DNA of 32,000 nucleotides from Sutcliffiella tianshenii. Its GTDB lineage: Bacteria; Bacillota; Bacilli; Bacillales; Bacillaceae_I. Positions 12,288 through 32,000 of this stretch are shown one piece after another (the stretch's first letter is position 1; every line of letters begins with the position of its first letter). The DNA is taken from assembly GCF_016908565.1 (NCBI RefSeq), contig NZ_JAFBED010000004.1, positions 307,798 to 339,797 on the forward strand, read 5' to 3'. The position numbers and the translations under genes were made by a program. The notes under the pieces are model-generated. The model was not told the origin of the DNA. It saw only the letters and a program-made list of their open reading frames with translations, and searched no databases.

Positions 12288-12361
12288 GTATGTATAATGC
12301 TCCTTCCAAGCGCCTTGTTTTTGATATGTATATATTTTACACCAATCTTAGCAAAAACTTC

Positions 12362-12403
12362 CGAAAAACAAAAGAAACCGCCCCTTTCTGTTTAAGGGCG
12401 GCT
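12362..12403 (-). terminator. Intrinsic terminator after minD
   Basis: Minus strand: GCCGCCCTT-aaacaga-AAGGGGCGG (one bulged G) followed by TTTCTTTTGTTTTT. Confidence 0.65.
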
Positions 12404-12414
12404 TCTCACCTGGA

Positions 12415-13212: not shown

Positions 13213-13215
13213 TTA

Positions 13216-13902: not shown

Positions 13903-14032
13903 GACGTTCACCTCAACAAGTATATAATTCGACATAGTCCTTCTATTTCCTTTTTCCTATGCGCATAAAAAATAAAAAAAGATTACTAGATTCATTATGT
14001 AGAACAAAAGCTGACTGAATCAGACAGCTTTC

Positions 14033-14554
14033 TTAGAGTTCATCCTTTTGTTCATATGCCAGCTTTTCCATGAACAATTTCAATGGAAAGATAAAGATCA
14101 ATGTGAAAATGGCATTGAAGATCAAGGTCGGCACAAGTCTGCCGGTCAGATAATCCTGATGCAGGATATTCGTGGTACCGATCAGGGTATGGATGCTGTA
14201 CACCAGATATTCCACTCCTGCAACTGCCAAGACAATCATAAAGAAAGCAATGAATATATTAGCCTGCAGCGCCTTCATCAGCTTCGATACAAAATAGGAG
14301 GCAACAGGATAGGCAAATAGATATACTCCCAATACTTCCGTATAGACAATATCGTAAAGAAGTCCGAATACCATGCCGAAAATGATCCCGATATAGGAAC
14401 CTGTATAGATTGTGCAAAGAATCAAGGTAATAAGCACATACCTCGGGACTATCACCCAATCCTCCTTGATGTTCCCCAGGAATAATATGTCGACCGTCAT
14501 GCTTTCCAAGACAAACAAGCAAAGAATAAGGGCTGGCAAGACATACTTCCTCAC
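14033..14554 (-). CDS. mreD: Rod shape-determining protein MreD
   Basis: 173-aa polytopic membrane ORF. It overlaps the mreC stop by 4 nt and sits in the conserved mreBCD position. Confidence 0.9.
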   Translation of the reverse strand: MRKYVLPALILCLFVLESMTVDILFLGNIKEDWVIVPRYVLITLILCTIYTGSYIGIIFGMVFGLLYDIVYTEVLGVYLFAYPVASYFVSKLMKALQANIFIAFFMIVLAVAGVEYLVYSIHTLIGTTNILHQDYLTGRLVPTLIFNAIFTLIFIFPLKLFMEKLAYEQKDEL

Positions 14555-15450: not shown

Positions 15451-15467
15451 GACTTAACACCTTCTTT

Positions 15468-16484
15468 TTAGCGATAATCTCTTGATTTCTTCTTAAATTC
15501 GTCAATATAATCCAAAGCTTTACCTGTTCCGATTGCCACACAATCCAAAGGATTTTCCGCAATGATGACAGGCATTTTCGTTTCATCACTAATCACTTTA
15601 TCCAGATTGCGAAGCAAAGCCCCTCCACCTGTCAGGACAATTCCGCGGTCCATGATATCTGCGGCAAGCTCTGGCGGCGTACGCTCCAAAGTCGCCTTGA
15701 CAGAATCAACGATTGCAGTAACTGTATCCTTCAGTGCCTCTTCCACTTCTTTAGCAGAAATCTCGACTGTTTTCGGAAGACCTGTCAACAAGTCGCGGCC
15801 GCGGATATCCATCGGTTCGATAGATTCAGAATCACCGGCAGATCCAACTTCAAGCTTCAGCGCTTCAGCCGTTCTTTCCCCGATCATCAAGTTGTAATTT
15901 TTACGGATATAAGCAATGATGGCATCGTCCATTTCATCCCCTGCAACACGGATGGATTGGCTTGTCACAATTCCCCCTAAAGAAATGATTGCAACTTCTG
16001 TCGTTCCGCCACCGATATCCACAACCATGGAACCTGTTGGCTCCCAAACAGGAAGATTTGCACCGATTGCCGCTGCAAATGGCTCTTCGATCGGATACGC
16101 ATCGCGTGCACCGGCTTGGCGTGTCGCATCGATAACCGCTCTTTCCTCAACTGCGGTAATCCCTGATGGCACACACACCATCACATATGGCTTACGGGAA
16201 AAAGCGCTCTTATTGCGCAATGCCTGCTTGATGTAGTATTTCATCATCGTCGCCGTTGTTTCATAATCAGCGATGACCCCATCCTTCATCGGACGAAGCG
16301 CCACCACATTACCAGGTGTACGACCGATCATATTTTTCGCATCGTTCCCTACAGCAACAATCTGCTTTGTGTCGGTCTGAAGTGCCACAACCGACGGCTC
16401 GCGCACAACAATCCCTTTTCCTTTAATAAAAACTAGTGTATTGGCTGTTCCCAAGTCAATACCAAGATCTCTCGTTCCAAACAT
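15468..16484 (-). CDS. mreB: Actin-like rod shape-determining protein MreB
   Basis: 338-aa ORF with [31 protein letters not shown] and [11 protein letters not shown] motifs. Confidence 0.95.
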
Positions 16485-16677
16485 AAATGTGTATCTCCCT
16501 TTCTGAAACTAAATGCTTAATTGGTGTGGTTAAAAGTGATAAAAGCGGACAGCTTGCCCTCATTTATTTCATTAACATGTGGATAATGTAGTTTTAAGAA
16601 GATAAAGCTTGGAAAGAAAAGTCCCTTCCAAACTCATGAGTAATATTATAGCGTAGGATAAGAAAAAAGCATAGTAC

Positions 16678-17373
16678 TTACACATAGCCTTTTTCTTTTA
16701 AACTGATGAATTTCTGATCGCCGATGATTAAATGGTCCAAAAGCTCTATTCCGATCAGTTTGCCGCATTCATTGAGCCTTTTTGTCACATCAATATCCTC
16801 ACGGCTTGGCGAAGGATCTCCCGAAGGATGGTTATGAAGGCAAATAAAGGAAGCGGCTGAACGACGAAAAGCTTCTTTGAACACCTCGCGGGGATGCACG
16901 ATGCTGGCATTCAGGCTTCCGATGAAGATGGTCTGCTGATGGAGCACTTGATTTTTTGTATTGAGGTAAAGACAAACAAAATGCTCCTGCGTCAAAAAAC
17001 GCATATCTTCCATCACATAATTGGCTGCATCCTCCGGCGACCGGATCACATAGCGGTCTTCATACTGAAGCCGGTGGATGCGCCGACCAAGCTCGACTGC
17101 AGCCATGATCTGGACTGCCTTGGCACTGCCGATCCCTTTGATGCTCATCATTTCATCAACGGATGCATCCTTCAGCAACCGCAATCCCTCAAACGAGGTC
17201 AACAGGCGATTTGCAAGCTGCAGGACGGATTCTTCCTTCGAGCCTGTACGGAGCATGATCGCCAAAAGCTCATGATTGGACAGGCTTTGCGGCCCGTCTT
17301 GAATCAGTCTTTCCCTTGGGCGTTCGTCTTCAGGATAGTCCCTTATCATTAAAGAAGTAGTTGGTGCTGTCAT
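16678..17373 (-). CDS. radC: RadC-like JAMM-motif protein
   Basis: ORF track 16678..17418. ATG 17373 is preferred because an AAAGGGGGA SD lies just upstream. It has an N-terminal HhH region (SNHELLAIMLRTGS ... IKGIGSAKA) and the JAMM motif HNHPSGDPSPSREDI. Confidence 0.9.
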   Translation of the reverse strand: MTAPTTSLMIRDYPEDERPRERLIQDGPQSLSNHELLAIMLRTGSKEESVLQLANRLLTSFEGLRLLKDASVDEMMSIKGIGSAKAVQIMAAVELGRRIHRLQYEDRYVIRSPEDAANYVMEDMRFLTQEHFVCLYLNTKNQVLHQQTIFIGSLNASIVHPREVFKEAFRRSAASFICLHNHPSGDPSPSREDIDVTKRLNECGKLIGIELLDHLIIGDQKFISLKEKGYV

Positions 17374-17427
17374 TTTTATCCCCCTTTGCTTTATTCCATT
17401 ACAAAAGCAAGAGGGCAATCTACCGCA

Positions 17428-17985
17428 TTAAAAGAAGCTCTTCAGTTCACGAACCGTTTTAGACAAAGGCAGTCCGACCACAGAGAAATAATCACCATGG
17501 ATCTCTTTCACAAACAAGGCTCCAACTTCCTGGATGCCATAGCTACCGGCCTTATCCATCGGTTCTCCTGATTTGATGTAATATTCGATTTCCTCATCCG
17601 TCAGCTCCCAAAACGTAACCGCTGTCTTTTCAAAAAATGTCACATGCCTATCTCCGCTCACAATCGCAACCCCGCTTATTACATAATGAGTATTGCCACT
17701 CAGCATCTTTAACATGTATGTTGCTTCGTCTACATCTTTGGGTTTGCCAAGAACCAAACCGTCATGGACCACTATCGTATCTGCGCCGATGATGACAGAT
17801 TCCCTATTATCCCTGGCAACATCTTCAGCTTTCTGAAGAGCCAGGTTCATGGCAATTTCTTCTGGATTCATTTTGGGGTCAAAGGTCTCTTCGATCGTAC
17901 TGACCTTCACTTCAAAGGAGAGTTTTACTTGTTGGAGGAGCTCCTTTCTTCTGGGGGATCCTGAGGCTAAAATTAGAGGCTTCAT
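17428..17985 (-). CDS. maf: Maf nucleoside-triphosphate pyrophosphatase (septum formation protein)
   Basis: 185-aa ORF with LILASGSPRRKELL, GADTIV and AGSYGIQ motifs. Confidence 0.9.
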   Translation of the reverse strand: MKPLILASGSPRRKELLQQVKLSFEVKVSTIEETFDPKMNPEEIAMNLALQKAEDVARDNRESVIIGADTIVVHDGLVLGKPKDVDEATYMLKMLSGNTHYVISGVAIVSGDRHVTFFEKTAVTFWELTDEEIEYYIKSGEPMDKAGSYGIQEVGALFVKEIHGDYFSVVGLPLSKTVRELKSFF

Positions 17986-18100
17986 GCATTATCACCTTTT
18001 CCTGGAATTTTTCAAACAAGAGAGATACAAGGTTATCGTAACACATAAATCAGCCTTGTAACAAACAAATACCAAACAGAATCAAAACATGCATTTCTAC

Positions 18101-18138
18101 ATAAAAACAGGCCCCAAAACATTGTTTTGGGAACCTGT
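18101..18138 (-). terminator. Intrinsic terminator after the spoIIB-like gene
   Basis: Minus strand: ACAGG-tt-CCCAAAAC-aat-GTTTTGGG-g-CCTGT followed by TTTTAT. It lies 15 nt after the stop. Confidence 0.65.
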
Positions 18139-18152
18139 TTTCATTGAATATT

Positions 18153-19286
18153 TTACTGGTACAGAAAAGCGGTCGCTTCCAATAATTTCTGTTGTGCCCC
18201 CCACAATTCCGAGGAGTCTTTGGATGTTTGATATTGCTGAATGTGCTGATATGCACCAACAAGAAGGTCTTTCCACTGTTTAGGACCATCTGTCATTTCT
18301 TCCGCTTTGACTGCCGAGATCTTCTCAAAATGTCCGTTCATTTTTTCCACTGCACTGCTATCAAGTGTTCCTCCCTGGAGCAATGAGGAGGAGGTTGCAG
18401 CCAATTCCTTGTATAGACTTTGACCTTCTTGAAGAACTGCCGCATCCTGAGCATTCAAAGAATTGAACGTCCTTTCAGGGATCGCAAACTCCTTCGCATA
18501 GGTTTCCAGTCCTTTATCGCTTGCCATTGTACCGAGACTTTTCATTCCTTCTACCGTCTGTCCGATTCCCACCAATACATAAATGGTATCCTTGCCGACA
18601 GCAACAGCTGAAAATCCCTGGCTTTTGAACGAATCTATCGTCGCATTTGCAGCTTCCATACTCGATAATGCCCCACCCTGCAGGACAGCTACTCCTAGCG
18701 CAGGTATGGTGACACTCTGCCCGTCGCTGTTCCCAGCTGTTCCGGTATTTTCATTTTCCGCCTGGTCTGATACCGAGCCCGCAACAGGCTGGTTAGGATT
18801 CAATGGATTATCAGAAGAGATATTCATGATTGCGAGAATAATAAAGCCTAAACAAGTCCCAATGCCGACAGCCATCACAATGGATACAATAAGTTGTTTC
18901 GAAAAGGACGGAGGGGCCAATTTCTTCTTTTTTAATGAGTGGGGAAGCGATTTCTTCCCTTTTGGTTTATTGATTTGACGCAAATCTTCTATATAAGAAG
19001 TTTTTTCAGATGTTGTTTCCTTATTCTCCGGCTTCACCGGCTCTTTAGGAAGAACCCATTCGAAATCTTCTTCCTCTTTCTTTTCTGCTGCTGCAGCCGT
19101 CTCATCCACGATGATCAAGGGCAGGTCGTCCTCTTCGATTGGCGTTTCCCGCTCTGGATTTTGATAGTCTTCCATGGATGTCCCGTGACGATTTTTCCCT
19201 TTCTTTTTCTTTGAGTTTCGATGATATGATTTTTCCACCCCGTTAATGCGGATTTTCACTTCATGGGAATGATTCTTGTCCAACAT
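18153..19286 (-). CDS. spoIIB: SpoIIB-like SPOR-domain sporulation or septal peptidoglycan-binding protein
   Basis: ORF 18153..19298. ATG 19286 is preferred because a GGAGGTG SD lies upstream. It has a lysine-rich N-terminus, one TM segment (LIVSIVMAVGIGTCLGFIILAI) and a SPOR-like domain (GVAVLQGGALSSMEAANATIDSFKSQGFSAVAVGKDTIYVLVGIG). It occupies the spoIIB position next to maf. The assignment rests on synteny plus architecture. Confidence 0.6.
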   Translation of the reverse strand: MLDKNHSHEVKIRINGVEKSYHRNSKKKKGKNRHGTSMEDYQNPERETPIEEDDLPLIIVDETAAAAEKKEEEDFEWVLPKEPVKPENKETTSEKTSYIEDLRQINKPKGKKSLPHSLKKKKLAPPSFSKQLIVSIVMAVGIGTCLGFIILAIMNISSDNPLNPNQPVAGSVSDQAENENTGTAGNSDGQSVTIPALGVAVLQGGALSSMEAANATIDSFKSQGFSAVAVGKDTIYVLVGIGQTVEGMKSLGTMASDKGLETYAKEFAIPERTFNSLNAQDAAVLQEGQSLYKELAATSSSLLQGGTLDSSAVEKMNGHFEKISAVKAEEMTDGPKQWKDLLVGAYQHIQQYQTSKDSSELWGAQQKLLEATAFLYQ

Positions 19287-19352
19287 GTCCACCTCCATTT
19301 ACCTTGACAAAATATGTCTGCAATTGATTTGTTTCATCCTATCATAGCGCAT

Positions 19353-19447: not shown

Positions 19448-20173
19448 TTATTCATTGTCGAGAAAAGGATTTGTCTTATTGCTCGGTTCCGGCGCTGAGA
19501 TCGGAGGAAGGTCCTCAATCAGATCTGCTAGCTCCGGATGGTAAAATGCTGATAATTGAACTGAATATGATAGTGACGTCAATTCCTGGGCAATGGAAGT
19601 CAGCTCGGGAAGTCCGGTGAAAGCAACCGATTCAATTTGGGTGATCCGGGTCAAACCTTCCAGTTCCTCAAGGAAAGCTGTAAGGTCTTCATAGTTCTCG
19701 GACTCTACGGATAAATTGACGGTCACCTTTTTTAACCCTTCAGGCAGGTAGGCTTGTTCTGTCTGCTGTTCCGCTGTTCCCTCTGTGTCAGTCGAACTGT
19801 TTGTTTCCACATACTCTTCCAAAGTGGTTGTTGCCACGGAAAAGTCCGCATCCCCGAATGTCATATTCATGATCCTGGAATTGGAGACCACTTCCGCTTT
19901 CTCGAGTTCCAGGATCAGCTGTTCCACATAGGACGTTACAGGAATCTTCCGCTGAAGTTCCATGGTATTTCCCAGGCTTGCCCCAGCTGATTCCTGCTGC
20001 TGATCCAACACTTGAATCAATTGCTCCTCGATTTCGATCTCCTGCTTTTTTTGCTCCACCATCGTCTGTTTCGGCGCATAGCTTAAATAGTAGAATAGGA
20101 TGATTCCCAGTACGAGAAATGCTACAACAGAGGCAAAGATGAAGTAGTGTTTTCTCTGCAGTTCAATGTTCAT
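19448..20173 (-). CDS. pilO: Type IV pilus inner-membrane alignment protein PilO
   Basis: 241-aa ORF whose ATG overlaps the pilN stop (ATGA). It has a short cytoplasmic N-terminus, one TM segment (YFIFASVVAFLVLGIILFYY), a coiled coil and then a ferredoxin-like region. Position after pilM-pilN is conserved. Confidence 0.75.
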   Translation of the reverse strand: MNIELQRKHYFIFASVVAFLVLGIILFYYLSYAPKQTMVEQKKQEIEIEEQLIQVLDQQQESAGASLGNTMELQRKIPVTSYVEQLILELEKAEVVSNSRIMNMTFGDADFSVATTTLEEYVETNSSTDTEGTAEQQTEQAYLPEGLKKVTVNLSVESENYEDLTAFLEELEGLTRITQIESVAFTGLPELTSIAQELTSLSYSVQLSAFYHPELADLIEDLPPISAPEPSNKTNPFLDNE

Positions 20174-20844
20174 AGACCCTCGCCTCCATCCTCTGATTCC
20201 GTATCCGGCCCGGTTTCAGTATCCTCTTCATCCGATACGGTTTCTTCACCTTCAGTTTCCGGAGTTTCCTGTTCCTCTGCCTTTATGGCAGCCTTGTCAA
20301 ATTCGAGGCTGTACTGCGCGATATAACGAGGCAATACATCAGCGTCCTCTTCCTCACCGACAATTGCTGTGGAAACACTTGATAGGTTGACATTCTGGAA
20401 ATAGCCGTTACCGTTCAGATGATACAAATAATATGCCGCGTCTTTGGATTGATCGAACTGGACCGTTACATTTAATGCCCCGCTTTCTGCATAGGAAAAG
20501 CTCTGCACAAACCCGCGATCCGGAAGCATCCTGACAAGCTCCTGCATGACAGGGACCATTTCCACGGGATATTCCTCTGCCCATTGAACCGTATTCTCCA
20601 AACGCTGTGCGGAGGATGAATTTTGGGGTGTCCGTATCGCTTCTTCTTTGGCCGCACGCAACGCCTGGACATTTTCAAGGCCTCTTTCAGCCCTTGCGAC
20701 ATCCTCGCTGACAAGATGCTGAAAGATGACTAGAAGGACGACCACAAATAGTATAAAGAACCCGCAAATTCCGTAAACAAGAGGAGTCGTAATGTCACGC
20801 GCCTGTTTTCTTGGCAATAGGTTTATATCTACTAACGTTTTCAT
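20170..20844 (-). CDS. pilN: Type IV pilus alignment protein PilN, with an unusual acidic C-terminal tail
   Basis: The N-terminus carries the INLLP signature (MKTLVDINLLPRKQ) that binds PilM. It is followed by one TM segment and a periplasmic-type domain. The last 35 residues are Glu/Asp/Thr-rich. Confidence 0.8.
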   Translation of the reverse strand: MKTLVDINLLPRKQARDITTPLVYGICGFFILFVVVLLVIFQHLVSEDVARAERGLENVQALRAAKEEAIRTPQNSSSAQRLENTVQWAEEYPVEMVPVMQELVRMLPDRGFVQSFSYAESGALNVTVQFDQSKDAAYYLYHLNGNGYFQNVNLSSVSTAIVGEEEDADVLPRYIAQYSLEFDKAAIKAEEQETPETEGEETVSDEEDTETGPDTESEDGGEGL

Positions 20845-20846
20845 TC

Positions 20847-21827
20847 CTACACCTCTTTTAACGCCAACCCGAGTGGGAAATAAAATTTCGGGTCAACAAC
20901 CTCTTGATCTTGTGTATAGACTTCCTGCTCATATGTATCGACCGGTACAGTAATCCGCTCCCTTAACTTTGCCAAAACCAATGGGAAATTCGGATGATCT
21001 CCGTGCAATAGTACTCTCTTCACTTCATCCGTTCCTTGATTCAAGGAATAGCGGAAGAAGTTCATGATCCGCTCCACTTCCTTGATGAAGTCCTCCAAAA
21101 ACACGTTAAACTGAATGATATCCCCGGCCCACTCCATTCTCGTATTCGTCTCGGACACTTCCCATGTCTTAATGTCTGCTGGGATTGCGATGGTCCTGAC
21201 GAATACAGGAGCATGCTTCATAAAGATACTAAGGGTGATACAGCTGATATCAAAATGAATGATCAGTAGATGGTCATTTTCATTCCGTTGACCGAATTCA
21301 TAATAAAGTCGGTATAGGCAAAGGGAGGACACATCCGCCACCGTCGGCTTCATTTTGTTTTCTTCGAAGATGGAAGACACCTGAGTGACCATTTCTTCCG
21401 GCGAAGCAAAAAGGACAAGGTCCGTTTTTTCGGAGCGTTGCAGAACATGCACGTCAAATACCGGATCTTCAAATGGAAGGTGAATGGTCGAACCGAGCTC
21501 CAGATACAGGTGACCGATGATCTCATCATCCATCACATTCGAGGGGATGCTGAGCTTTCTCGTCACCACAAACTGATCTGGAACGACAAACCTGACATGC
21601 TTCCTCTTCAATCCCCATTCTTCCACACATTCCTCGAAAATGAGACGAAAGATATTTTCATCGACAATTTTCCCATCACGCACGATGTTCGGCGGCAAAA
21701 ATCTCTCCCTTGTCCGTTTGACCGTCAAAGGATTCAAACTCTTCAACTCTACCATTCTAATAACATGGTCACGAAACGTAATATTTATAAAATTATTATG
21801 TTTTGGCTGTAAAAATGAAAATTCCAT
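20847..21827 (-). CDS. pilM: Type IV pilus assembly protein PilM (actin-like ATPase fold)
   Basis: 326-aa ORF with an AAAGGAG SD. Its size and position immediately upstream of pilN-pilO fit PilM, and the sequence has an FtsA/MreB-like fold pattern. Confidence 0.8.
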   Translation of the reverse strand: MEFSFLQPKHNNFINITFRDHVIRMVELKSLNPLTVKRTRERFLPPNIVRDGKIVDENIFRLIFEECVEEWGLKRKHVRFVVPDQFVVTRKLSIPSNVMDDEIIGHLYLELGSTIHLPFEDPVFDVHVLQRSEKTDLVLFASPEEMVTQVSSIFEENKMKPTVADVSSLCLYRLYYEFGQRNENDHLLIIHFDISCITLSIFMKHAPVFVRTIAIPADIKTWEVSETNTRMEWAGDIIQFNVFLEDFIKEVERIMNFFRYSLNQGTDEVKRVLLHGDHPNFPLVLAKLRERITVPVDTYEQEVYTQDQEVVDPKFYFPLGLALKEV

Positions 21828-21851: not shown

Positions 21852-22610
21852 CTAGAAGAGTAGGGAAAAGTACAGGTTCAAAATTTGCTCGCCTGCAAAA
21901 TAACCGATGAGTGCCGCCACTGCAATCGAAGGACCAAACGGAAACGGCACACCCCTCTTCACCTTGCCGAAAAGCATGCCAATTAGGGCAGCCATCATTC
22001 CGATCAAGGAGGAGAGAAAGAATGTGAGAATGACCATCTTCCACCCTAATACAAACCCGAGGACCGCAAACAGCTTAATATCCCCTCCACCCATGCCACC
22101 TTTGCTAAGCAAGGCAACAAGTGCTGGAATGGCAAAACCTACCGCCAGTCCGATAAGATGATTCGGTAGCGTCTGATAAGGAATGAAAAATCTTTCAAAG
22201 ATGAATAAAAGAAAGAAAAATAGCAGTATCTTGTTTGGAATGAGCATATAGTGAATATCAGTAATGACGATGATGATCAGCATCGATATGAGGGTCCAGG
22301 CAATTACCAGTTCGTAAGTCCAACCCATCAAAAATGGCGCAAGGACAAACAGCACAGCCGTCAAAAGCTCGAATAATGGATAAATAGGAGACACGGCCTG
22401 TTTACAGTACCGACATCTCCCCTTGGAAAATACATATGAAAGGACGGGAATCAAATCAATCCCCGTCAATGTCTGCTTACAGCTTGTACAATGTGACCTC
22501 GGCGCCACGATTGACATGCCCTTTGGTATTCGAAGGCCGACTACGTTGTAGAAGGAGCCTAGGAGGAGGGCTAGTGTAAATAATTGAACATAGTAATACA
22601 TCATAATCAA
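21852..22610 (-). CDS. pilD: Prepilin peptidase / N-methyltransferase (A24 family; PilD/ComC)
   Basis: Maximal ORF from TTG 22610; ATG 22604 or 22601 are also possible. The CTSCKQTL...CRYCKQ zinc motif marks the methyltransferase region. Catalytic Asp contexts are VITDIHYMLIPN and GGMGGGDIKLFAVLG. It aligns by eye with B. subtilis ComC. Confidence 0.9.
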   Translation of the reverse strand: MIMMYYYVQLFTLALLLGSFYNVVGLRIPKGMSIVAPRSHCTSCKQTLTGIDLIPVLSYVFSKGRCRYCKQAVSPIYPLFELLTAVLFVLAPFLMGWTYELVIAWTLISMLIIIVITDIHYMLIPNKILLFFFLLFIFERFFIPYQTLPNHLIGLAVGFAIPALVALLSKGGMGGGDIKLFAVLGFVLGWKMVILTFFLSSLIGMMAALIGMLFGKVKRGVPFPFGPSIAVAALIGYFAGEQILNLYFSLLF

Positions 22611-22613
22611 TTG

Positions 22614-23099
22614 TTAATTATTTGTAACACTACTTTTATTAATAACTAAATTTCCACCTGTATTTGCAGTAGCTTTTACACTTCTATTTTCCCCGACTAA
22701 ATTTACACCAATGACTTTCCCGTCTAATAATTGAACATATGAATGAGTATCAGCTATAGTATCTACAGCAGCGTTAGATTTATTTCCTTGTTTGTAGGAT
22801 TTATTTTTATCGTCTGGATCTTGGATTTGCTCTAGGAATCCTTTTGAAATTAAATACTCTAAAGATACAAACTTTGAACCAACACTAATGGAAGAGTCAG
22901 ATGTAGCAGCAAGTCTAGCAGCACTTACTACTTGTTCGGCATTAGCAACGTGCGCATCAACTTTAGAATTATCAATCAGTTTACCAATACTCGGTACCGC
23001 AATCGCAGCAATAATACCCAAAATAACAACTACCGCTAAAAGCTCGATCAGCGTCAAGCCTTTTTCATTTTTTAACATACTTCTGAATTTTTGTAACAT
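22614..23099 (-). CDS. pilA: Major type IV pilin (PilA-like)
   Basis: ATG 23099 follows a GGGAGGA SD; the ORF-track TTG start at 23135 is unlikely. The class III signal is MLQKFRSMLKNEKG / LTLIELLAVVVILGIIAAIAVP (Gly-1, Leu+1, Glu+5). The mature protein is ~147 aa and has no cysteines. It lies between pilC and pilD. Confidence 0.85.
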   Translation of the reverse strand: MLQKFRSMLKNEKGLTLIELLAVVVILGIIAAIAVPSIGKLIDNSKVDAHVANAEQVVSAARLAATSDSSISVGSKFVSLEYLISKGFLEQIQDPDDKNKSYKQGNKSNAAVDTIADTHSYVQLLDGKVIGVNLVGENRSVKATANTGGNLVINKSSVTNN

Positions 23100-23144
23100 C
23101 TTTAATATTCCTCCCATTTTGGAAATAAGTAACAATTATTTTAT

Positions 23145-23196: not shown

Positions 23197-24405
23197 CTAT
23201 GACTGAATGTGGTTAAAAATATCGAACATTGGAACTAGTATGGATGTGACTATAGTCCCTACTATAACTGCGAGCACAACAATCATTAATGGCTCTATCA
23301 GACTCTTTAATCTGTCGGTTGCGTGGTCTACTTCTTTTTCATAGAATTCCGCTATTTTATCCAGCATCGAATCCAGTGATCCAGTGCTTTCCCCGATGGA
23401 GATCATTTGTGTTACAAGGGGCGGGAATGCCCAGTGCCCTTTCATTGGTCCAGTCATGCTTTCCCCTTTTTCCAGGGATAGCTTGCTGTCTGCAAGTACT
23501 TTTGCAATTACCTCATTTTCGACAATCTTCTCCACGATGCTTACCGCCTGCAGGATTGGGACTGAACTTGTGAACAATGAACTCAATGTCCTGGTAAACC
23601 TTGCAATGACTGCCTTTTGCAGCAATGGGCCAAAGATAGGCAATCGTAACACTAAGTAATCCAAATAGTACTTTGTTTCCTTCTTTGACTTTAATGCCAT
23701 CACTCCTACTACCAATGCCAGTATCATCAACAGGAACAGCCACCAGAATGATTGCATCCACTCACTTGCTCCAAGGACGAATCGGGTGATGAGTGGAAGC
23801 TGTGCGCCAAAGTCACTGAACATGGCGACAAAGGTAGGAACAACCCCAACAAGCAGGAAGATGACCACCCCAATGGCAATCACACCAAGCACCATCGGAT
23901 AGGTCAAGGCCGAAACGATTTTGGATCTTGTTTCACTTTGTTTCTCAAATTGCATGGCAAGCCTGTCAAGCGTGTCATCGAGTGCACCGCTTGCTTCCCC
24001 TGCCTTGATCATATTGATGAACATGGTGGAGAATACTTTCGGATGCTTTGCGGCAGCCGCTGAGAGCGCGTTACCCTGCTTCAACTCTTCCTCTACATCA
24101 AACAGCACCCTCTTCAAGGCCTTGCTTGATGTCTGGTTTGCCAGGACATTTGTCGCTTCCACAACAGAAATGCCTGCCCGTATGAGTGTAGAGAATTGGC
24201 GAAGGAATATAACAAAGTCCCTAAGCTTAACAGGATTTCCTATGCTGATATCCTTAGTGAAGATCGACTCCGGTATCTCCTCAATCCTGACTACGCGTAT
24301 TCCTTTTTCCTTCAATTGTACAATTGCCTCTCGACGGGATGCGCTGGTGATGGAGCCGTCCTTCTTCCCAGCTGTATCCCGGCCTGTATAAGTAAATCTT
24401 GGCAT
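23197..24405 (-). CDS. pilC: Type IV pilus platform protein PilC (GspF family)
   Basis: 402-aa ORF with duplicated GspF-type cytoplasmic domains (LSTLIRAGISVVEA ... and LSSLFTSSVPILQAV ...) and three TM segments. Confidence 0.9.
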   Translation of the reverse strand: MPRFTYTGRDTAGKKDGSITSASRREAIVQLKEKGIRVVRIEEIPESIFTKDISIGNPVKLRDFVIFLRQFSTLIRAGISVVEATNVLANQTSSKALKRVLFDVEEELKQGNALSAAAAKHPKVFSTMFINMIKAGEASGALDDTLDRLAMQFEKQSETRSKIVSALTYPMVLGVIAIGVVIFLLVGVVPTFVAMFSDFGAQLPLITRFVLGASEWMQSFWWLFLLMILALVVGVMALKSKKETKYYLDYLVLRLPIFGPLLQKAVIARFTRTLSSLFTSSVPILQAVSIVEKIVENEVIAKVLADSKLSLEKGESMTGPMKGHWAFPPLVTQMISIGESTGSLDSMLDKIAEFYEKEVDHATDRLKSLIEPLMIVVLAVIVGTIVTSILVPMFDIFNHIQS

Positions 24406-25446
24406 CTAATTCACCGTCTCCTGCAGGAAGCTCTCTGCTGATACTCTACTAATCTCACTATTCTGGATGAGCTGCCTGATGCTCATTTCCAAGGTGTGCA
24501 TACCTAAGGCCCTGCTTGTTTGCATCACGTTTTGAATCTGATGTATTTTCTCGTTTCGGATCAGGTTCGCAACCGCCGGGGTGTTGACCAAAATTTCGGT
24601 CGCCACTTTCCTTCCCTGTCTATCCAATGACGGGAAAAGCCTCTGAGAGATGATCGATACAAGGACAGAAGCTAGCTGGATCCGAATCTGCGCCTGCTGT
24701 GGTCCTGGAAATACGTCAATGATCCGGTCGATGGTTGATGGCGCACTTGTCGTATGCAAGGTACCCAAAACAAGATGACCGGTTTCTGCTGCAGTGATGG
24801 CAGTCTGGATGGTCTCGAGGTCACGAAGCTCCCCTACGAGGATAACATCCGGATCCTGCCTAAGGGATGCCCTCAGTCCGGTAGCAAAGCTTTTGGTATC
24901 GAATCCTACCTCACGCTGATCGATCATGCACTGATTATGGCGATGAAGATACTCAATCGGATCTTCCAAGGTAATGATATGCTTCTTCATCGTGCGATTC
25001 ATATAGTCGATCATGGAAGCAAGTGTAGTCGACTTCCCGCTCCCCGTTGGACCAGTAACAAGGATCAGCCCCTGCGGCTTATCTACAAGACTATTTAATA
25101 TAGACGGCAGCGAAAGCTCTTCAAGGGATGGAACCCTGCTCGGTATAATACGTATGGCAATCGCAACGGATGTTCTTTGGCGGTAGGCGTTCACACGGAA
25201 TCTTGATATCCCCGGGACACTGTAGGAAAAGTCCAGTTCCCCTTTTTCATCAAATGTCTGCCACATAAATTCAGGTATCATCTGTTTGGCAATCGTATGG
25301 GTGTCCTCAGGAGTGAGAATATCCTTCCCATAGCTCTTGAGCTCCCCGTTTATGCGGAAAACCGGCGGAACTCCTACAGATAGATGGATATCGGATGCTT
25401 TATATTCATAGGCTGCATGGAGCCAGTCATTCATTTTATCCAGCAT
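24406..25446 (-). CDS. pilT: Type IV pilus retraction ATPase PilT
   Basis: ORF track 24406..25458 (GTG). ATG 25446 is preferred because GGTGAG lies 7 nt upstream. It has ASDIHL, Walker A GPTGSGKST, Asp box, Walker B ILVGELRD, His box TLHT and AIRNLIRE-like VANLIRNEKIHQ, the PilT signature. Confidence 0.9.
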   Translation of the reverse strand: MLDKMNDWLHAAYEYKASDIHLSVGVPPVFRINGELKSYGKDILTPEDTHTIAKQMIPEFMWQTFDEKGELDFSYSVPGISRFRVNAYRQRTSVAIAIRIIPSRVPSLEELSLPSILNSLVDKPQGLILVTGPTGSGKSTTLASMIDYMNRTMKKHIITLEDPIEYLHRHNQCMIDQREVGFDTKSFATGLRASLRQDPDVILVGELRDLETIQTAITAAETGHLVLGTLHTTSAPSTIDRIIDVFPGPQQAQIRIQLASVLVSIISQRLFPSLDRQGRKVATEILVNTPAVANLIRNEKIHQIQNVMQTSRALGMHTLEMSIRQLIQNSEISRVSAESFLQETVN

Positions 25447-25458
25447 GCTTTTTCTCAC

Positions 25459-27126
25459 CTACTCTTGAAGGGCAACACGCAGAATCTCTTCGGTTGTGGT
25501 AAGCCCTTTTTTTACTTTTAACAAACCATCATCTATCAAGAAGACTGTATCCTGTTCATGTGCGTATTCCCTCAATCGGGAAATCGGCTCGTTGTTCATG
25601 ATCATCTTTTTCATCTGATCGTTGATGACAAGCAGTTCATGGATGGCGATACGACCTTTATAGCCTGTCATATTGCACGTGCCACAGCCTTTTCCTCGCA
25701 TCACCTTATCAATCTCAAGGCCGCGTTTAGCGAATATCTCTTTCTCTCTTAAGGTCGGTTCCTCCGGTTTAGCACAGTCCCGGCATACTTTCCTTACTAG
25801 ACGCTGTGCGAGCACACCATTAATGGAAGATCCTACAAGGAACGGCTCCACCTTCATATCTACAAGTCTAGTAATGGTACTGATTGCGTCATTGGTATGA
25901 AGTGTGCTCAGTACAAGGTGACCGGTCAATGATGCACGGATGGCAATCTCGGCAGTCTCCCGGTCACGGATTTCTCCTACCATGATGACATTCGGATCCT
26001 GACGTAGGATGGCACGAAGACCTTTGGCAAACGTCATCCCTACATTCGTGTTGACCTGGATCTGATTGATGCCTTCCAATTGATATTCCACAGGATCTTC
26101 AACCGTGATGATGTTTACTTCCTCACTGTTCAGATGGTTCAACGCCGCGTAAAGAGTGGATGATTTCCCTGAACCTGTAGGACCGGTTATGAGGATGATC
26201 CCGGTCGGCTTATGTATGAGATCGGTAAAGCGTTCATAGTTCTTTTCATTGAAACCAAGCTGCGTGATATCATTCAACGCACTGCTCATATCCAATATCC
26301 GCATAACGATTTTTTCGCCAAAAACGGTAGGAAGCGAGGAAACACGGACATCGACTGGATGGAAGTCAACGTTCGTCTTGATTCTTCCATCCTGTGGGAC
26401 ACGATGCTCGGTGATATCCATCTGCCCCAGGATCTTGATGCGTGCAATAAGAACATTTTGGGTATGTTTTGGCAAGACCCTTTCTGTCCGTAGTACGCCA
26501 TCTATACGATATCTAACAACAACTTTGGTTTCCTGTGGATCGATATGGATATCACTTGCCCGCTGCTGGACAGCGTTTTGCAATAGTTGATTTACCAATC
26601 TGACAATTGGTGAATCCTCTTCGGTAATCCGCTCATCCTCCACCTTGACCTGAACATTCGGTTCAAAGCCTTCTAGCAGCTCATCCATGGAATCGGCCGT
26701 TTCATAATATTTATTGATGGATCGTAGAATATCGTCTTTGGTGGAAATGACCGGTTCGATCTCAAAACCGGTGGACAGCCTCAGGTCATCCATGGCAAAG
26801 AAGTCCATAGGGTCTGCCATGGCAACGAACAACCGATCATGTTCTTTTTTCAGTGGAATTAAGATATTGCGTTTTGCAAACTCTTTGGACACGATATGCA
26901 TCAGCTTATCATCAAAAGGATAGCGGAATAAGCTTACATGCGGAATACCTAGCTGGAATTCCAACACTTCAATAAGTTGCTGTTCCGTGATGAATCCCTT
27001 TTGGAGCAGAACATCCCCAAGCTTCTGTTCACGTGTTTTCTCCTTCAGAGCACTTTTCAACTGACTTTCGGTAATAATGCCGGCTTCGACCAATAAGTCC
27101 CCAAGCCTCTTTCTTGTCTGCACCAT
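25459..27126 (-). CDS. pilB: Type IV pilus assembly ATPase PilB (GspE family) with an MshEN-like N-terminal domain
   Basis: ORF track 25459..27135 (GTG). ATG 27126 is preferred because AAGGTGA lies 5 nt upstream. It has Walker A GPTGSGKSS, Walker B IMVGEIRD and the tetracysteine motif CRDC...CGTC. The N-terminus has tandem RLGDLLVEAGII... / KLGDVLLQKGFI... motifs. Confidence 0.92.
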   Translation of the reverse strand: MVQTRKRLGDLLVEAGIITESQLKSALKEKTREQKLGDVLLQKGFITEQQLIEVLEFQLGIPHVSLFRYPFDDKLMHIVSKEFAKRNILIPLKKEHDRLFVAMADPMDFFAMDDLRLSTGFEIEPVISTKDDILRSINKYYETADSMDELLEGFEPNVQVKVEDERITEEDSPIVRLVNQLLQNAVQQRASDIHIDPQETKVVVRYRIDGVLRTERVLPKHTQNVLIARIKILGQMDITEHRVPQDGRIKTNVDFHPVDVRVSSLPTVFGEKIVMRILDMSSALNDITQLGFNEKNYERFTDLIHKPTGIILITGPTGSGKSSTLYAALNHLNSEEVNIITVEDPVEYQLEGINQIQVNTNVGMTFAKGLRAILRQDPNVIMVGEIRDRETAEIAIRASLTGHLVLSTLHTNDAISTITRLVDMKVEPFLVGSSINGVLAQRLVRKVCRDCAKPEEPTLREKEIFAKRGLEIDKVMRGKGCGTCNMTGYKGRIAIHELLVINDQMKKMIMNNEPISRLREYAHEQDTVFLIDDGLLKVKKGLTTTEEILRVALQE

Positions 27127-27146
27127 ATGATTCACCTTTTCATTTC

Positions 27147-28586
27147 TTATTTCCCAGTGTTATCCGTTCCAGAACCTGGCTCGTTGCCTGAATCGTTATC
27201 GTTATCATTATCGTTATTGTTGTTTGTATTTGTGTTACCGGAGTTGTTTTCTCCATTATTTGAGGTGTTTCCACCTGTGTTGTTAGAGTTTCCGGTATTT
27301 GTACCACCCGTGTTTGTGCCGCCAGTATTAGTACCACCTGAGTTTGAACCACCATTATTGCTGGAACCTGAATTACTGGTGTTCCCTGGAGTCGTTCCTG
27401 AATTTGTATCTGTATCAATATCAGGGTTCGTTGCAACTGTATTTCTGATAAGACTATGTTGTTCAATCCTGTGAATTGGTGGATAAAAGTCTTCACTATA
27501 CGATACCGTCTCCATTACCGCACCAGAGGCATCCTTAGCAACACGTTGAAGCTTAATAAACACCCCGTCCTTGCCTTCCTCTTTGACTTTCTTTTGATTA
27601 TTCAAAAGGGATGCCGAATATTGAACAATCGTTTTTGGAGTATAGGATTCTTTATTTTCCTCTTCAATGCTGTATACATAAGGCAATGCAGGACCGCTCA
27701 TCGTTCCAAGCACCGTAGAAGAATCGATGGAAAAAGTAACAATAAAGTCGCTATTATTTGGGTTCTCTATCACAAGGTCCATCTTGCCTCGTTCCATTTT
27801 TGCCTCATATCCAGCTACAGCCCATTCAGGCAGCTCTGTAGAGATATGCCTTTCCAATACTGCAAAGTTTGTAGAAGCCAAAAGTTGATAAATCATGGAA
27901 GCAACGACGCTTGAAGCTTCATCCGATAACATGATATTTTCCTTTAGTAGCCAATCATGCACAGAGAACGCTTGACCCGCAGGAACAGGAACTTCTTTAT
28001 TTGATAGACCTGCTTTTAGTTCATCTAAAACTTTTTTATCAGACACCTTAAGAATGGAATCAATCGAGGTTTTCTCGATCAAAGTATCATCCAAAAGATA
28101 ATCAGCAATGAAAAATGTTTGATTTCCCCCTTTAAGCATGGTCGCAACCTCTATCAAGTCATTTAAGAGTTTTTCAGAATCCAATGCAGCAAAAATATCA
28201 GGACTATTTGTTAAAGCTTCTATTTCGGCCAATAAAATACTGGATTCCAATTCTACATTTAAGGAATTGGTAGTGGAGTCCTGCGCATAATCAACGGATT
28301 CCGGTATATAGAAAATAAAATGGTTTTTATCAAAAGGTCTAAGTTCGCCGGACCATTCAAAAAAAATGGTTCCATCCGTAAGCCATGCATCTCTTGCGGC
28401 TTCCAACTTTTTCACAACTTCGTCTTTTGACTTGTTGCTTACCTCTTCATTGGCTATTAGCGTCTTCTCGGAAAACGCACTTTTATGAGGAAGCCAATTG
28501 TCTGTAATCATGGAACCGACAAAAGAAAAGGTAAATATAAAAGCTGTACAAACAAGCAATGCAAGCAATGTCTTTAAACTTTGCAT
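27147..28586 (-). CDS. Membrane-anchored extracytoplasmic VanW-family-like protein with an Asn/Thr/Gly/Ser-rich C-terminal tail
   Basis: 479-aa ORF with a GGGGGAG SD and an N-terminal signal-anchor (LLALLVCTAFIFTFSFVG). The central region aligns by eye with the VanW domain (FSVHDW ... VVASMIYQLLASTNFAVLERHISTELPEWAVAGYEAKMERGKMDLVIENPNNSDFIVTF). It is preceded by a PG_binding_4-like segment and followed by a G5-like beta segment (KKVKEEGKDGVFIKLQRVAKDASGAVMETV). It ends 20 nt before pilB. The CDS itself is secure; the family call is moderate. Confidence 0.6.
   Translation of the reverse strand: MQSLKTLLALLVCTAFIFTFSFVGSMITDNWLPHKSAFSEKTLIANEEVSNKSKDEVVKKLEAARDAWLTDGTIFFEWSGELRPFDKNHFIFYIPESVDYAQDSTTNSLNVELESSILLAEIEALTNSPDIFAALDSEKLLNDLIEVATMLKGGNQTFFIADYLLDDTLIEKTSIDSILKVSDKKVLDELKAGLSNKEVPVPAGQAFSVHDWLLKENIMLSDEASSVVASMIYQLLASTNFAVLERHISTELPEWAVAGYEAKMERGKMDLVIENPNNSDFIVTFSIDSSTVLGTMSGPALPYVYSIEEENKESYTPKTIVQYSASLLNNQKKVKEEGKDGVFIKLQRVAKDASGAVMETVSYSEDFYPPIHRIEQHSLIRNTVATNPDIDTDTNSGTTPGNTSNSGSSNNGGSNSGGTNTGGTNTGGTNTGNSNNTGGNTSNNGENNSGNTNTNNNNDNDNDNDSGNEPGSGTDNTGK
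27150..27443 (-). repeat. Low-complexity coding repeat encoding the 98-aa N/T/G/S/D tail of the VanW-like protein
   Basis: It encodes GGTNTGGTNTGGTNT, NNNNDNDNDND and similar runs. At DNA level there are imperfect 15-bp units (ggtatttgtaccacc / cgtgtttgtgccgcc / agtattagtaccacc) and (gttatc)n-like runs. The region is open in several frames, which generates spurious ORFs. Confidence 0.75.
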
Positions 28587-28614: not shown

Positions 28615-29010
28615 TCATTTTTTCTCTGTTATTTGATCGGAAAGTTCTTCTAATACCAGTTTTCTTCTATGTATATCCTTTTGTTCATAAGCATCTGAAT
28701 CTAGGAATGTAGTATTCTGTTTGTTGTCTCTTGCAGTTCTGGTAGTTTCTTCTTTAATTGAAGTATTCGCTAGGAATAGACGTTGTCTTTGAAGTAGTAA
28801 AGCAGTAAGAAGTAGAAGTAAAATCATAAATATAATGCTGTGCCATATTGTTAAAGTCTTCAGCACGAAAATACCCAAAGTGGAGATAAGAAATGATATT
28901 AGCGGGATGATCCATTTACCCTTAGAGGTGAATTTCATCCTGACAAGAAAAAATAATGGCAACAATAACGCTGTAGCCAAGACTGCAAAAACGTAATTCC
29001 CCAAAATCAC
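28615..29010 (-). CDS. Hypothetical small membrane protein (about three TM helices plus a charged C-terminus); possible first gene of the pilB operon
   Basis: 131-aa ORF from GTG 29010 with a weak SD. Hydrophobic segments are VFAVLATALLLPLFFLV, WIIPLISFLISTLGIFVL and IIFMILLLLLTALLL. It is on the same strand as the VanW-like gene and 28 nt upstream of it. I recognise no family. Confidence 0.45.
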   Translation of the reverse strand: MILGNYVFAVLATALLLPLFFLVRMKFTSKGKWIIPLISFLISTLGIFVLKTLTIWHSIIFMILLLLLTALLLQRQRLFLANTSIKEETTRTARDNKQNTTFLDSDAYEQKDIHRRKLVLEELSDQITEKK

Positions 29011-29106: not shown

Positions 29107-29823
29107 ATGAAACAAATTATTGAAAAAAATGGTGGTTTCACATTAATTGAAGTTTTAGTATCCATAACAATTTTCTCAATCATCTTGCTTGGCATGATGA
29201 CCTTCTTTACCAATGGTCTAACCTATGTAAAGGAAAACGAATCTAAAACAGTAGCAACACAGGTGGCACGGAATGTCATGAATTATATGGAGAAGCAGGA
29301 TTTCGGAACGTTCGAGGCGTTTACTAATCAAAAAATGATGGATTTGGATCCTACGGTTAATTTTGATTCTCCTTTTTCAGTTACAATTAATCTCTCTTCA
29401 TGCGCTAAGGTGCATAACCTTATGATTAAGCCTTATCCAAATTCACTAGAATCTGACCGCTTGCAATACAACAACGTTAAACTCTTCTCCAATGAAATTC
29501 AGTGTAATTCGATTTTTAATCCAATAATCAATAATGTTACCTTAGGGAGCAGCAGTATAAATGTCTATGTCATGAAGTATTATGATCAACAACTTGAAGA
29601 AGAACTAAATGATAATCCCGAAATAATAAATTTACCTTCTTCAGTTAAGAAAGCGTATCTGAATCAAATCGATATTTTAACACTAAAAGATAGTCAGGAT
29701 AAATTAGACCCTGATAGTGATATAGCACAACATCTTTTGAGAATTTTTGTCGTGGTAGATTGGACAGATAATCGTGATGAAATCATGTTACAAGGAGTTA
29801 TCGCACATGAATCTATTCGCTAA
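29107..29823 (+). CDS. Minor pilin, prepilin-type N-terminal cleavage/methylation domain protein (PilV-like)
   Basis: ATG 29107 lies 8 nt after an AGGAG SD; the ORF-track TTG 29059 is unlikely. The class III signal is MKQIIEKNGG / FTLIEVLVSITIFSIILLG (Gly-1, Phe+1, Glu+5). Two Cys residues are present in the globular part. Confidence 0.8.
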   Translation: MKQIIEKNGGFTLIEVLVSITIFSIILLGMMTFFTNGLTYVKENESKTVATQVARNVMNYMEKQDFGTFEAFTNQKMMDLDPTVNFDSPFSVTINLSSCAKVHNLMIKPYPNSLESDRLQYNNVKLFSNEIQCNSIFNPIINNVTLGSSSINVYVMKYYDQQLEEELNDNPEIINLPSSVKKAYLNQIDILTLKDSQDKLDPDSDIAQHLLRIFVVVDWTDNRDEIMLQGVIAHESIR

Positions 29824-30469: not shown

Positions 30470-32000
30470 ATGAACGAAAAAGGCTCTACGTTAATTTTAG
30501 TTCTCATCATTTCTACAGTATTTATGATATTAGGCTTGAGTATTCTTGCTGTCGCTTTAAATGGAAGCACCAGAACACAATTGAGAACCGAAACTATAGG
30601 AGAATTGTATGAAGGAAAAGAAGAAATCGAGTTACTTACGGCATCATTTAAAGAAGAAGTAGAGTATGCCAGTTCCAATTTATTAAGTATTTCATTGCCT
30701 AGTGAGTATAACAGCGCTTATATTCCTGAACTGAATAAATTAATTTCCAATACTATAGAAACATTTCCAGCTTTAAAATCAAAAGGGCTGACAATTAATG
30801 ATATCACCGATGAATATATCGATGAAGTGACAGACTTAGATAAAACATATACCCGGGTTTTCGAGATATCCATTCCTCTTGATACAGGTAAAAGAGTTAA
30901 TAAACGTCTCATAATAACACCAGCGCCAAGCTTTCTGGATTATGCTTTAGGCTCATATGGCTCTGGTCCTGACGATGGGAAACTATACCTGAATGGGTCA
31001 TCAAATATATTAGGCAGTATTATTGCAAATGATTTATCCGTAAGCAGTAAAGCGAAGCTACGTGATAAACTAACTGTTACAAGTAGTGCGGTTAAAAGAG
31101 AAGAAGACAGCCTATTTCCTGCAATTAAAGGAAATGGATTTGTACAAAATCAATTAACTTTAAAGCATTCTGGCTTTCCAAACATTCCAGGATCTACAAG
31201 TACAACAGACTTAAAGAGCTTACCAGATTTAAGTGAATATTTTTATCTCGGTGCAGCCCCTAGCTTTGAAAGGCTGAATGAGGAATTTATTGAAGTACAA
31301 TTCAATACTACTTTCCTGAATAAATTTAATGAGCTGACTTCTGCCTATGTAAGTCAAGGTATCGCTGATATTAGTAACATTCCTAAGGCAACTGACAACC
31401 TTATCAATGTTATCAATCTAGAGAATACGTACCTGCAAAATAATAATATACTGATGATTGAAAAGTGGTTAGCTGACAAGCCAAATACACGACTTACGCA
31501 TAATAACAACCTCTATATTAGATCACTAATAAAGAATCCTCACATTACTAATGGAGTCACTTTCTCTGAAGATATTATCGTTACTGGTGATTTAGAAATA
31601 TCTGCAGTTGATAGACCTATTACATCGGACGGCAATACAATTATTGTTGGTGGGGACCTGAATATTACAGCATTGTCAGGAAATGAAATAGAATTAAATA
31701 GTAATATTGTTGTCCTTGGCGATTTAGAAATTAATACTATTACTACACCTATTCACCATAGGGGGACAATAGTTGTCTATGGTGAAGTAAGAATTAATGG
31801 TTCAGATTCCATAGGACTAAGTGAAATGGAATTTGACCAAAACTCTATTTACTTTGACAGTACAATTTACAGTTTTAGAAAAAGTCACATCTCAAATGTC
31901 AACGTCAGAGGAAGAGATGGCAATCAATTGGTTCTGTTGGCTAATGAAGATATTATTATCACCAGGATAAACGACTTATTCGAGTTTAAGGAAAAGCAAT
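30470..32000 (+). CDS. Large PilX-N-like (GspK-type, no Glu5) minor pilin fused to a beta-helix-like repeat domain; partial, continues beyond the window
   Basis: ATG 30470 lies 7 nt after a GAGAGG SD. I translated the frame by hand and it stays open to nt 32000 (at least 510 codons), so it is absent from the closed-ORF track. The N-terminus is MNEKG / STLILVLIISTVFMILGLSILAVAL. The C-terminal part has ~22-aa repeats (IIVTGDLEISAVD..., IIVGGDLNITALS..., IVVLGDLEINTIT..., IVVYGEVRINGSD...). Confidence 0.75.
   Translation, partial: MNEKGSTLILVLIISTVFMILGLSILAVALNGSTRTQLRTETIGELYEGKEEIELLTASFKEEVEYASSNLLSISLPSEYNSAYIPELNKLISNTIETFPALKSKGLTINDITDEYIDEVTDLDKTYTRVFEISIPLDTGKRVNKRLIITPAPSFLDYALGSYGSGPDDGKLYLNGSSNILGSIIANDLSVSSKAKLRDKLTVTSSAVKREEDSLFPAIKGNGFVQNQLTLKHSGFPNIPGSTSTTDLKSLPDLSEYFYLGAAPSFERLNEEFIEVQFNTTFLNKFNELTSAYVSQGIADISNIPKATDNLINVINLENTYLQNNNILMIEKWLADKPNTRLTHNNNLYIRSLIKNPHITNGVTFSEDIIVTGDLEISAVDRPITSDGNTIIVGGDLNITALSGNEIELNSNIVVLGDLEINTITTPIHHRGTIVVYGEVRINGSDSIGLSEMEFDQNSIYFDSTIYSFRKSHISNVNVRGRDGNQLVLLANEDIIITRINDLFEFKEKQ

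Follow-up and report, generated by a model that had tools for sequence, protein, structure and literature searches.

A candidate capping pilin with a predicted beta-solenoid insertion at the type IV pilus locus of Sutcliffiella tianshenii and other Bacillales

The minor-pilin operon in the type IV pilus locus of Sutcliffiella tianshenii ends in a gene that raises a simple question: is its long product, which begins like a prepilin and has no glutamate at position +5 after the cut site (Glu5), a subunit of the pilus, and what would the beta-solenoid predicted to make up most of it do there? The gene lies at the edge of the stretch analysed here (hereafter, the window: 32,000 nucleotides (nt) of assembly GCF_016908565.1, contig NZ_JAFBED010000004.1, positions 307,798 to 339,797 of the forward strand). 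We consider it likely that the protein is a capping pilin of the PilX/GspK class into which a beta-solenoid has been inserted; it would be cut by the prepilin peptidase PilD, be incorporated first into the filament and carry the solenoid at the apex as a plug and probable adhesin. That it is cleaved, sits at the tip, primes assembly and adheres is inferred. The design itself is already known, and the protein is an unannotated, sequence-distinct representative of it that adds no new principle.

The N-terminus and the missing glutamate

The gene and the N-terminal features of its product are as follows.

30470..32000, plus strand: target gene, encoding the PilX/GspK-class pilin-like protein; first 510 of 626 codons, after which it leaves the window
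30470..30484, plus strand: putative class III leader peptide MNEKG, predicted cleavage after Gly5
30485..30559, plus strand: hydrophobic alpha1-N segment (residues 6-30), Leu at +5 and no Glu5; from hydropathy, alignment and the AlphaFold2 model

The ATG start codon at 30470 has a GAGAGG ribosome-binding site 8 nt upstream, and the reading frame stays open for 510 codons, up to nt 31999 at the window edge. The complete protein, of 626 amino acids (aa), was obtained from a database entry that is 100% identical over these 510 codons (P0001, Bacillus tianshenii "hypothetical protein"); its final 116 residues, a conserved C-terminal strand among them, lie outside the window. The product begins MNEKGSTLILVLIISTVFMILGLSILAVAL, with Gly at -1, Ser at +1 and Leu at +5, that is, with a short hydrophilic leader ending in Gly and then a hydrophobic helix (MNEKG/STLILVLIISTVFMILGLSILAVAL; mean Kyte-Doolittle hydropathy of residues 6-30, 2.6). 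This N-terminus, and a frame of at least 510 open codons, had been read in a preliminary description of the window, and both are confirmed in the sequence.

The protein belongs to a large family. A word-indexed homologue search found 11 relatives, and an exhaustive profile search found 563 clusters (50% identity) at an expect value (E) ≤0.001, 165 of them at E≤1e-30. Nearly all members match over their full length and measure 507-819 aa, so that "giant", the word first used for this 626-aa protein, was an overstatement. Members come from Bacillus, Sutcliffiella, Cytobacillus, Rossellomorea, Neobacillus, Niallia, Anoxybacillus, Parageobacillus, Aeribacillus, Domibacillus, Ectobacillus, Paenibacillus, Exiguobacterium and Haloplasma, and are almost always annotated "hypothetical protein"; in Exiguobacterium the label is "type II secretion system protein".

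Among 95 aligned members the N-terminal consensus is [RK]-N-E-[RK]-G / S-A-L-[LV]-[LMT]-V. The Gly before the cut site is invariant (95/95), position +1 is Ser in 73 members and Tyr in 13, and position +5 is occupied by L, M, T, V, I or A, with Glu in 0/95. The members from Exiguobacterium and Haloplasma follow the same pattern, Glu again being absent at +5. A regular-expression scan for a Glu5-type motif picked up GGAxRTE, a second motif inside the protein, and nothing at the cleavage site. That second motif, GGAxRTExRE in its longer form, is conserved in the family directly after the hydrophobic helix, and the target version reads NGSTRTQLRT (window 30560-30589, residues 31-40).

A prepilin cut-site Gly that never varies, preceded by a short basic leader and combined with the lack of Glu5, is the mark of the GspK/PilX/PilK class (table in PMC13533445). 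No Pfam model matched the first 80 residues more often than PilX_N (PF14341), which did so in 20 of 48 members at E≤1 (best E=0.0018). The PilFind rule needs (A/G)x4(D/E) (PMC3244431), and it is because rules of this type need that pattern that the family stayed unannotated.

The same N-terminus has to be weighed against another possibility, namely that the protein is an uncleaved signal-anchor accessory and not a filament subunit, with its beta-helix standing on the surface or in the wall by the pilus base, as a tapirin-like adhesin or a wall-spanning pilus guide. The absence of Glu5 would suit such a protein, as would the fact that neither N_methyl nor PilX_N ever scored above threshold. A plain signal anchor, however, needs neither a Gly at the prepilin cut site nor a short basic leader, whereas the family keeps them in 95 of 95 aligned members. 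Together with the structural and positional evidence given below, this leads us to regard the anchored accessory as unlikely.

Predicted fold and structural matches

The segments of the predicted fold map to the window as follows.

30791..30919, plus strand: small beta-sheet (residues 108-150), taken as the pilin-domain sheet; AlphaFold2 and couplings
30947..31207, plus strand: beta-solenoid segment 1 (residues 160-246); AlphaFold2, predicted local distance difference test score (pLDDT) mostly >88
31208..31555, plus strand: helical excursion between the solenoid segments (residues 247-362); AlphaFold2, pLDDT <50 at residues 332-360
31418..31552, plus strand: insertion of ~43 residues within the helical excursion (residues 317-361), target-specific, pLDDT <50
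31556..32000, plus strand: beta-solenoid segment 2 (residues 363-581, cut by the window at residue 510); AlphaFold2, carries the four repeats

With ten sequences the AlphaFold2 model reached a pLDDT of 71; with 95 sequences it reached a pLDDT of 86.5 and a predicted template modelling score of 0.87. The predicted elements run in the order helix 4-71 (an N-terminal helix of 68 residues), helix 77-98, strands 108-150, solenoid 160-246, excursion 247-362, solenoid 363-581 and a last strand, 617-625, which both the model and the family alignment place, conserved, after the solenoid. The beta-helical strands of 160-246 and 363-581, for which pLDDT is mostly >85, form a beta-solenoid that makes up most of the protein. 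Segment 1 holds a conserved PSFLxYAxGS...LNG motif, and the insertion of ~43 aa in the excursion is missing from the nearest homologues (583 aa).

The preliminary description had noticed four or more repeats of about 22 residues, and four are present. The motif I[IV]VxG[DE][LV]xI occurs four times, at residues 369, 391, 413 and 434 (residues 369-442; nt 31574-31795), with spacings of 22, 22 and 21 residues. When the target fragment was shuffled (n=20,000), a relaxed motif, [IVL][IVL][IV]xG[DE][LVI]x[IV], occurred on average 0.0023 times and never more than once per shuffle, the pattern having been set after inspection of the data. A right-handed beta-helix or a bactofilin-like solenoid had been suggested for these repeats. 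A beta-solenoid is indeed predicted with high confidence by AlphaFold2, over the C-terminal two thirds of the protein. Against Bactofilin (PF04519; threshold 27.9 bits) the target had no match and three homologues scored only 11-19 bits. Sub-threshold matches to G8, MinC_C, DUF7305, Bactofilin and WcaB were set aside as generic beta-helix noise.

Where the solenoid sits in the pilin fold was addressed by residue couplings, using a reduced mean-field analysis of 185 sequences (~172 effective). Pairs between residues 129-151 and residues 612-618 supply 4 of the 20 strongest couplings, in a block holding ~1.3% of the scored pairs; coupling enrichment between solenoid segments 1 and 2 was no better than chance in the same analysis. 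The covariation suggests that the chain comes back to the N-terminal sheet at its C-terminal end. Taken with the order in which the secondary-structure elements follow one another, these couplings of the C-terminal segment suggest, on the predicted model, that the pilin fold takes in the solenoid ahead of its last C-terminal strand and does not have it appended. The solenoid had earlier been described as "fused to" a pilin module in the manner of the Streptococcus sanguinis modular pilins; element order and couplings point instead to an insertion, as in ComZ. The coupling between C-terminal segment and N-terminal sheet, which is what a GspK-like pilin fold with an inserted domain would show, also argues against the membrane-anchored accessory.

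We compared the AlphaFold2 model with 350,542 PDB chains using Foldseek. The best match was weak: ComZ of Thermus thermophilus (6QVI), with E=2.5e-3 over 608 aligned columns. ComZ consists of a GspK-like pilin domain and a ~380-residue solenoid, resembling ice-binding proteins, that is inserted between the penultimate and last strands; a long helix-containing loop joins the ends of the solenoid (PMC6561018). Tapirins ranked third (C-terminal domain 4WA0, E=0.024) and ninth with the deeper model, and a tapirin match of the 4WA0/6N2C type ranked first (E=0.034) with the shallower one. Ice-binding proteins were also among the next matches, and all top matches were beta-helices; no viral structure did better than E=0.085 in the fold search. 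The ranking is still informative: of the solved pilins only ComZ has been described as having a large beta-solenoid inserted in it, and the genes of tapirins, which are beta-helix proteins, stand next to a pilus locus of a Firmicute. The place of tapirins among the top matches also speaks for the anchored accessory, since they are cell-surface beta-helix proteins from beside a pilus locus (bioRxiv 10.1101/359786).

A beta-helix may also be an enzyme, and the search bears on this as well. Family 3 pectate lyases and a polysaccharide lyase family 6 (PL6) alginate lyase gave weak matches, and these, with the sub-threshold G8 hits, would fit a polysaccharide-cleaving enzyme (lyase or hydrolase) like pectate lyases or tailspikes, which would be surface-anchored or delivered to the surface and cut matrix or wall polymers there. 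The lyase matches, however, have E>1 and probability ≤0.03, rank below ComZ and tapirin, and are usual for any beta-helix, and no enzyme family model was matched in Pfam or NCBIfam. We find an enzymatic role very improbable.

The pilus locus in Bacillales

The remaining features of the locus are as follows.

19448..21827, minus strand: alignment-complex genes PilM, PilN and PilO; PilM_2 and PilN above cut-off, PilO below
21852..22610, minus strand: prepilin peptidase PilD; A24_N_bact and Peptidase_A24
22614..23135, minus strand: major pilin PilA (..KNEKG/LTLIE); N_methyl E=2e-7
23197..24405, minus strand: platform protein PilC; T2SSF
24406..25458, minus strand: retraction ATPase PilT
25459..27135, minus strand: extension ATPase PilB; T2SSE and MshEN domains
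27147..28586, minus strand: VanW/G5-like protein, first gene of the divergent machinery operon; Pfam VanW and G5 below cut-off
29107..29823, plus strand: minor pilin 1, MKQIIEKNGG/FTLIE, Glu5 present, PilV/GspI-like; N_methyl PF07963
29807..30457, plus strand: minor pilin 2, MNLFAKVFRDERG/VTLLE (..DERG/VTLLE), Glu5 present, PilW/GspJ position; N_methyl E=3.3e-6

The target is the third and last gene of a three-gene plus-strand operon. Minor pilin 1 matches N_methyl PF07963 above cut-off (E=3.2e-8) and, below cut-off, TIGR02523 PilV (E=9.4e-11) and GspI (E=1.2e-6). It overlaps minor pilin 2 by 17 nt, the AAGGAG ribosome-binding site of the latter lying at 29792-29797, and no plus-strand terminator-like site was found between the three operon genes. 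With Glu5 in both upstream pilins and a PilV/GspI-like first one, the order of the genes fits the canonical I-J-K arrangement.

This arrangement is conserved. In 68 genome loci from many Bacillales genera, the homologue lies directly after minor pilin 1 in 66 and after minor pilin 2 in 64, and is divergent from genes for a VanW-like protein (64/68), PilB (67/68) and PilT (66/68), with PilC also on the divergent side. The protein is, therefore, a fixed component of the Bacillales pilus cluster and not an oddity of a single genome. The PilX/GspK-type anchor of the preliminary description is borne out by the Gly kept in 95/95, by a position +5 that is never Glu and by the placement of the gene after two Glu5 minor pilins (64-67 of 68 genomes). 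Strict third-gene placement behind two true prepilins is, again, not what an anchored accessory would lead one to expect.

Gene order beyond the target was read from L001, the locus of the closest relative (Sutcliffiella), and from L014, that of Cytobacillus firmus. In both the gene after the homologue is convergent; thus, the operon ends with the target and has no PilY1-like gene as part of it. The convergent gene encodes in L001 a protein of 514 aa with an N-terminal hydrophobic segment and a Pfam Big_2 match (9790-11334, minus strand), and in L014 a protein of 955 aa, also with an N-terminal hydrophobic segment (10019-12886, minus strand).

The pilus machinery set in the window is complete, the PilD peptidase included, and PilD is expected to process all four pilin-like proteins. 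The true start of PilA is probably internal to its open reading frame. PilT bears on a further reading, in which architecture and tip location would be as we propose and the solenoid would capture DNA for natural transformation, as has been proposed for ComZ. ComZ, the best fold match, binds both DNA and its neighbour among the minor pilins, PilA2; transformation depends on it and piliation does not (PMC6561018). The profile searches, however, found no sequence similarity of the target family to ComZ, and the cluster of the target, which carries pilT, looks like that of a general motility or adhesion pilus. Bacillales normally take up DNA through the separate ComG system, which is not in the window. 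DNA capture is, on balance, distinctly improbable.

Several neighbours deserve mention in their own right. The VanW/G5-like protein (479 aa, encoded directly upstream of pilB) has a low-complexity tail rich in N, G, T and S (GGTNTGGTNTGGTNTG...NDNDNDND). Its homologue is present in 64/68 loci, so that it seems to be a constant feature of the Bacillales pilus cluster, and it might play a role in wall passage. The MshEN domain of PilB is N-terminal, and in L001 (pilB 11519-13255, minus strand) a membrane GAF-GGDEF protein is encoded two genes downstream of the target homologue. MshEN is a module that binds cyclic di-GMP, and the two observations together hint, from sequence, that the pilus might be under cyclic di-GMP control.

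Between the divergent operons the window encodes a 131-aa multi-pass membrane protein (28615-29010, minus strand), a place taken in many relatives by two other proteins, a membrane protein of 418 aa and one of 244 aa (L014 4758-6774, minus strand); the intergenic content of the cluster is, thus, variable. Between pilO and maf lies a gene for a 381-aa protein that has a single membrane segment and matches nothing in Pfam or NCBIfam (18153-19298, minus strand), at what is presumably the position of spoIIB in B. subtilis. The whole cluster is flanked by maf-radC-mreBCD-minCD-spoIVFA/B-like...obg-pheA (window 1-19300) and by folC-valS (L001 9790-17389). We take the same chromosomal position in B. 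subtilis to hold only the prepilin peptidase gene comC, which suggests that B. subtilis lost the rest of the pilus cluster.

Proposed role and comparison with known systems

If the protein is a capping pilin, its assembly may be pictured as follows. PilD, encoded 8 kb away, would remove the five-residue leader after Gly5, and the hydrophobic N-terminal helix would hold the protein in the membrane. Because an absent Glu5 means that no subunit is needed above, the protein could enter the filament first, and the two Glu5-bearing minor pilins would dock beneath it to give an I-J-K-type initiation complex, on which PilB, PilC and PilMNO would polymerise PilA. The ~400-residue beta-solenoid, inserted before the last strand of the small pilin fold, would then end up at the pilus apex. 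Since the operon contains no recognised gene of the PilY1/PilC type, it would fall to the solenoid to plug the tip and probably also to make contact with the substrate.

A number of results weigh against this picture. Numerically the fold match to ComZ is weak (probability 0.54, template modelling score 0.17-0.20), and with no Foldseek match at E≤0.001 among the PDB chains, none is significant alone. Three family profiles (A1, A2 and A3) run against solved chains found nothing relevant to ComZ, tapirins or GspK at E≤10; the matches that did appear were the T4 gp5 beta-helix (E=0.08) and the geopilin N-terminus (E=2). When the fragment, the complete protein and homologues were compared with Pfam and NCBIfam, no curated model scored above threshold, the PilX_N gathering score (25.5 bits) was reached by 0/48 N-termini (target, 12.4 bits, E=0.16), and rule-based pilin finders would reject a protein with Ser or Tyr at +1 and no Glu5. 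That no PilY1/PilC-like gene was recognised applies to the operon, the remaining genome not having been systematically searched. Finally, no processing by PilD is predicted for ComZ (PMC6561018), which is also a point for the membrane-anchored accessory. Set beside the invariant Gly, the place in the operon and the couplings, these results leave the capping pilin, in our judgement, the likely reading.

Should it hold, a large family of "hypothetical proteins" would gain a name and a testable role, and would become a target for adhesion studies. Little work has been done on the type IV pili of Bacillaceae, whose pil operon was first noted in 2011 (PMC3244431). The design of ComZ and cyanobacterial PilX would also be extended to monoderm Bacillales, in systems without a recognised PilY1, and the solenoid cap as a general alternative to PilY1 would gain support.

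Among known systems, ComZ is the closest. It is similar in size to the target (~550 versus 626 aa), is likewise encoded beside minor pilins, and shares with the predicted model of the target a hydrophobic N-terminal helix, a small domain taken to be a GspK-like pilin domain, a large beta-solenoid that makes up most of the protein, and a long helix-bearing loop that links the solenoid parts. The tip location put forward in the preliminary description is, by analogy, the reading given in the literature for ComZ, where it was argued on steric grounds (PMC6561018). ComZ differs in its diderm host, where the tip passes a secretin, in its competence locus and in its DNA-binding role, and its sequence similarity to the target is undetectable. 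The target family, for its part, belongs to monoderm Bacillales and is encoded in a three-gene operon that adjoins pilB-pilT-pilC.

Cyanobacterial PilX, likened here by description, comes next. A beta-solenoid insertion is reported for all cyanobacterial PilX homologues, from organisms that have no PilY1/PilC, and is proposed to replace PilY1 as tip plug or to serve as adhesin (bioRxiv 10.64898/2026.02.12.705559), much as we propose for the target; phylum and gene neighbourhoods are different. The preliminary description had suggested that the architecture may be undescribed. This fails, because ComZ (6QVI, 2019) and cyanobacterial PilX (2026) already show the inserted beta-solenoid.

Pilins of the GspK/PilX/PilK class share with the target the leader that ends in Gly, the lack of Glu5, the place as last gene after I- and J-type pilins and, on the predicted model of the target, an extra domain inserted in the pilin sheet. 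In systems without PilC/PilY1, a PilK-type pilin supplies a terminal beta-strand for assembly of the tip complex (2026 PNAS, PMC13533445). Unlike that of the target, the inserted domain of GspK is alpha-helical and has another insertion point (PMC6561018), and proteobacterial PilX is small. The modular pilins PilB and PilC of S. sanguinis resemble our proposal in joining a pilin module to a bulky functional module, presumed to be exposed at the pilus tip in a monoderm type IV system. Their class III signal peptide is canonical and includes Glu5, and their von Willebrand factor A or lectin module, which matches known domain families, is appended to the C-terminus through a short linker (bioRxiv 10.1101/2021.01.27.428410), whereas the target has no Glu5, a module that appears inserted, and no domain-family match. 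The adhesin role first suggested for the target stays an inference.

Tapirins of Caldicellulosiruptor (PDB 4WA0, 6N2B, 6N2C) combine a conserved N-terminal half with a cellulose-binding C-terminal beta-helix and a long end-to-end loop, and their genes adjoin a pilus locus (bioRxiv 10.1101/359786). A beta-helix is also predicted for the target, with fold matches to tapirins that are non-significant (E≥0.024) and no sequence match. It is tempting, if doubtful, to see ComZ, cyanobacterial PilX, the Caldicellulosiruptor tapirins and the Bacillales family as one ancient class of solenoid-capped PilX pilins that replace PilY1/PilC as tip plug and adhesin. If so, tapirins would be pilus-tip subunits and not free surface proteins, and the Bacillales proteins would be the substrate-binding tips, possibly binding polysaccharide, of an unstudied Bacillus type IV pilus.

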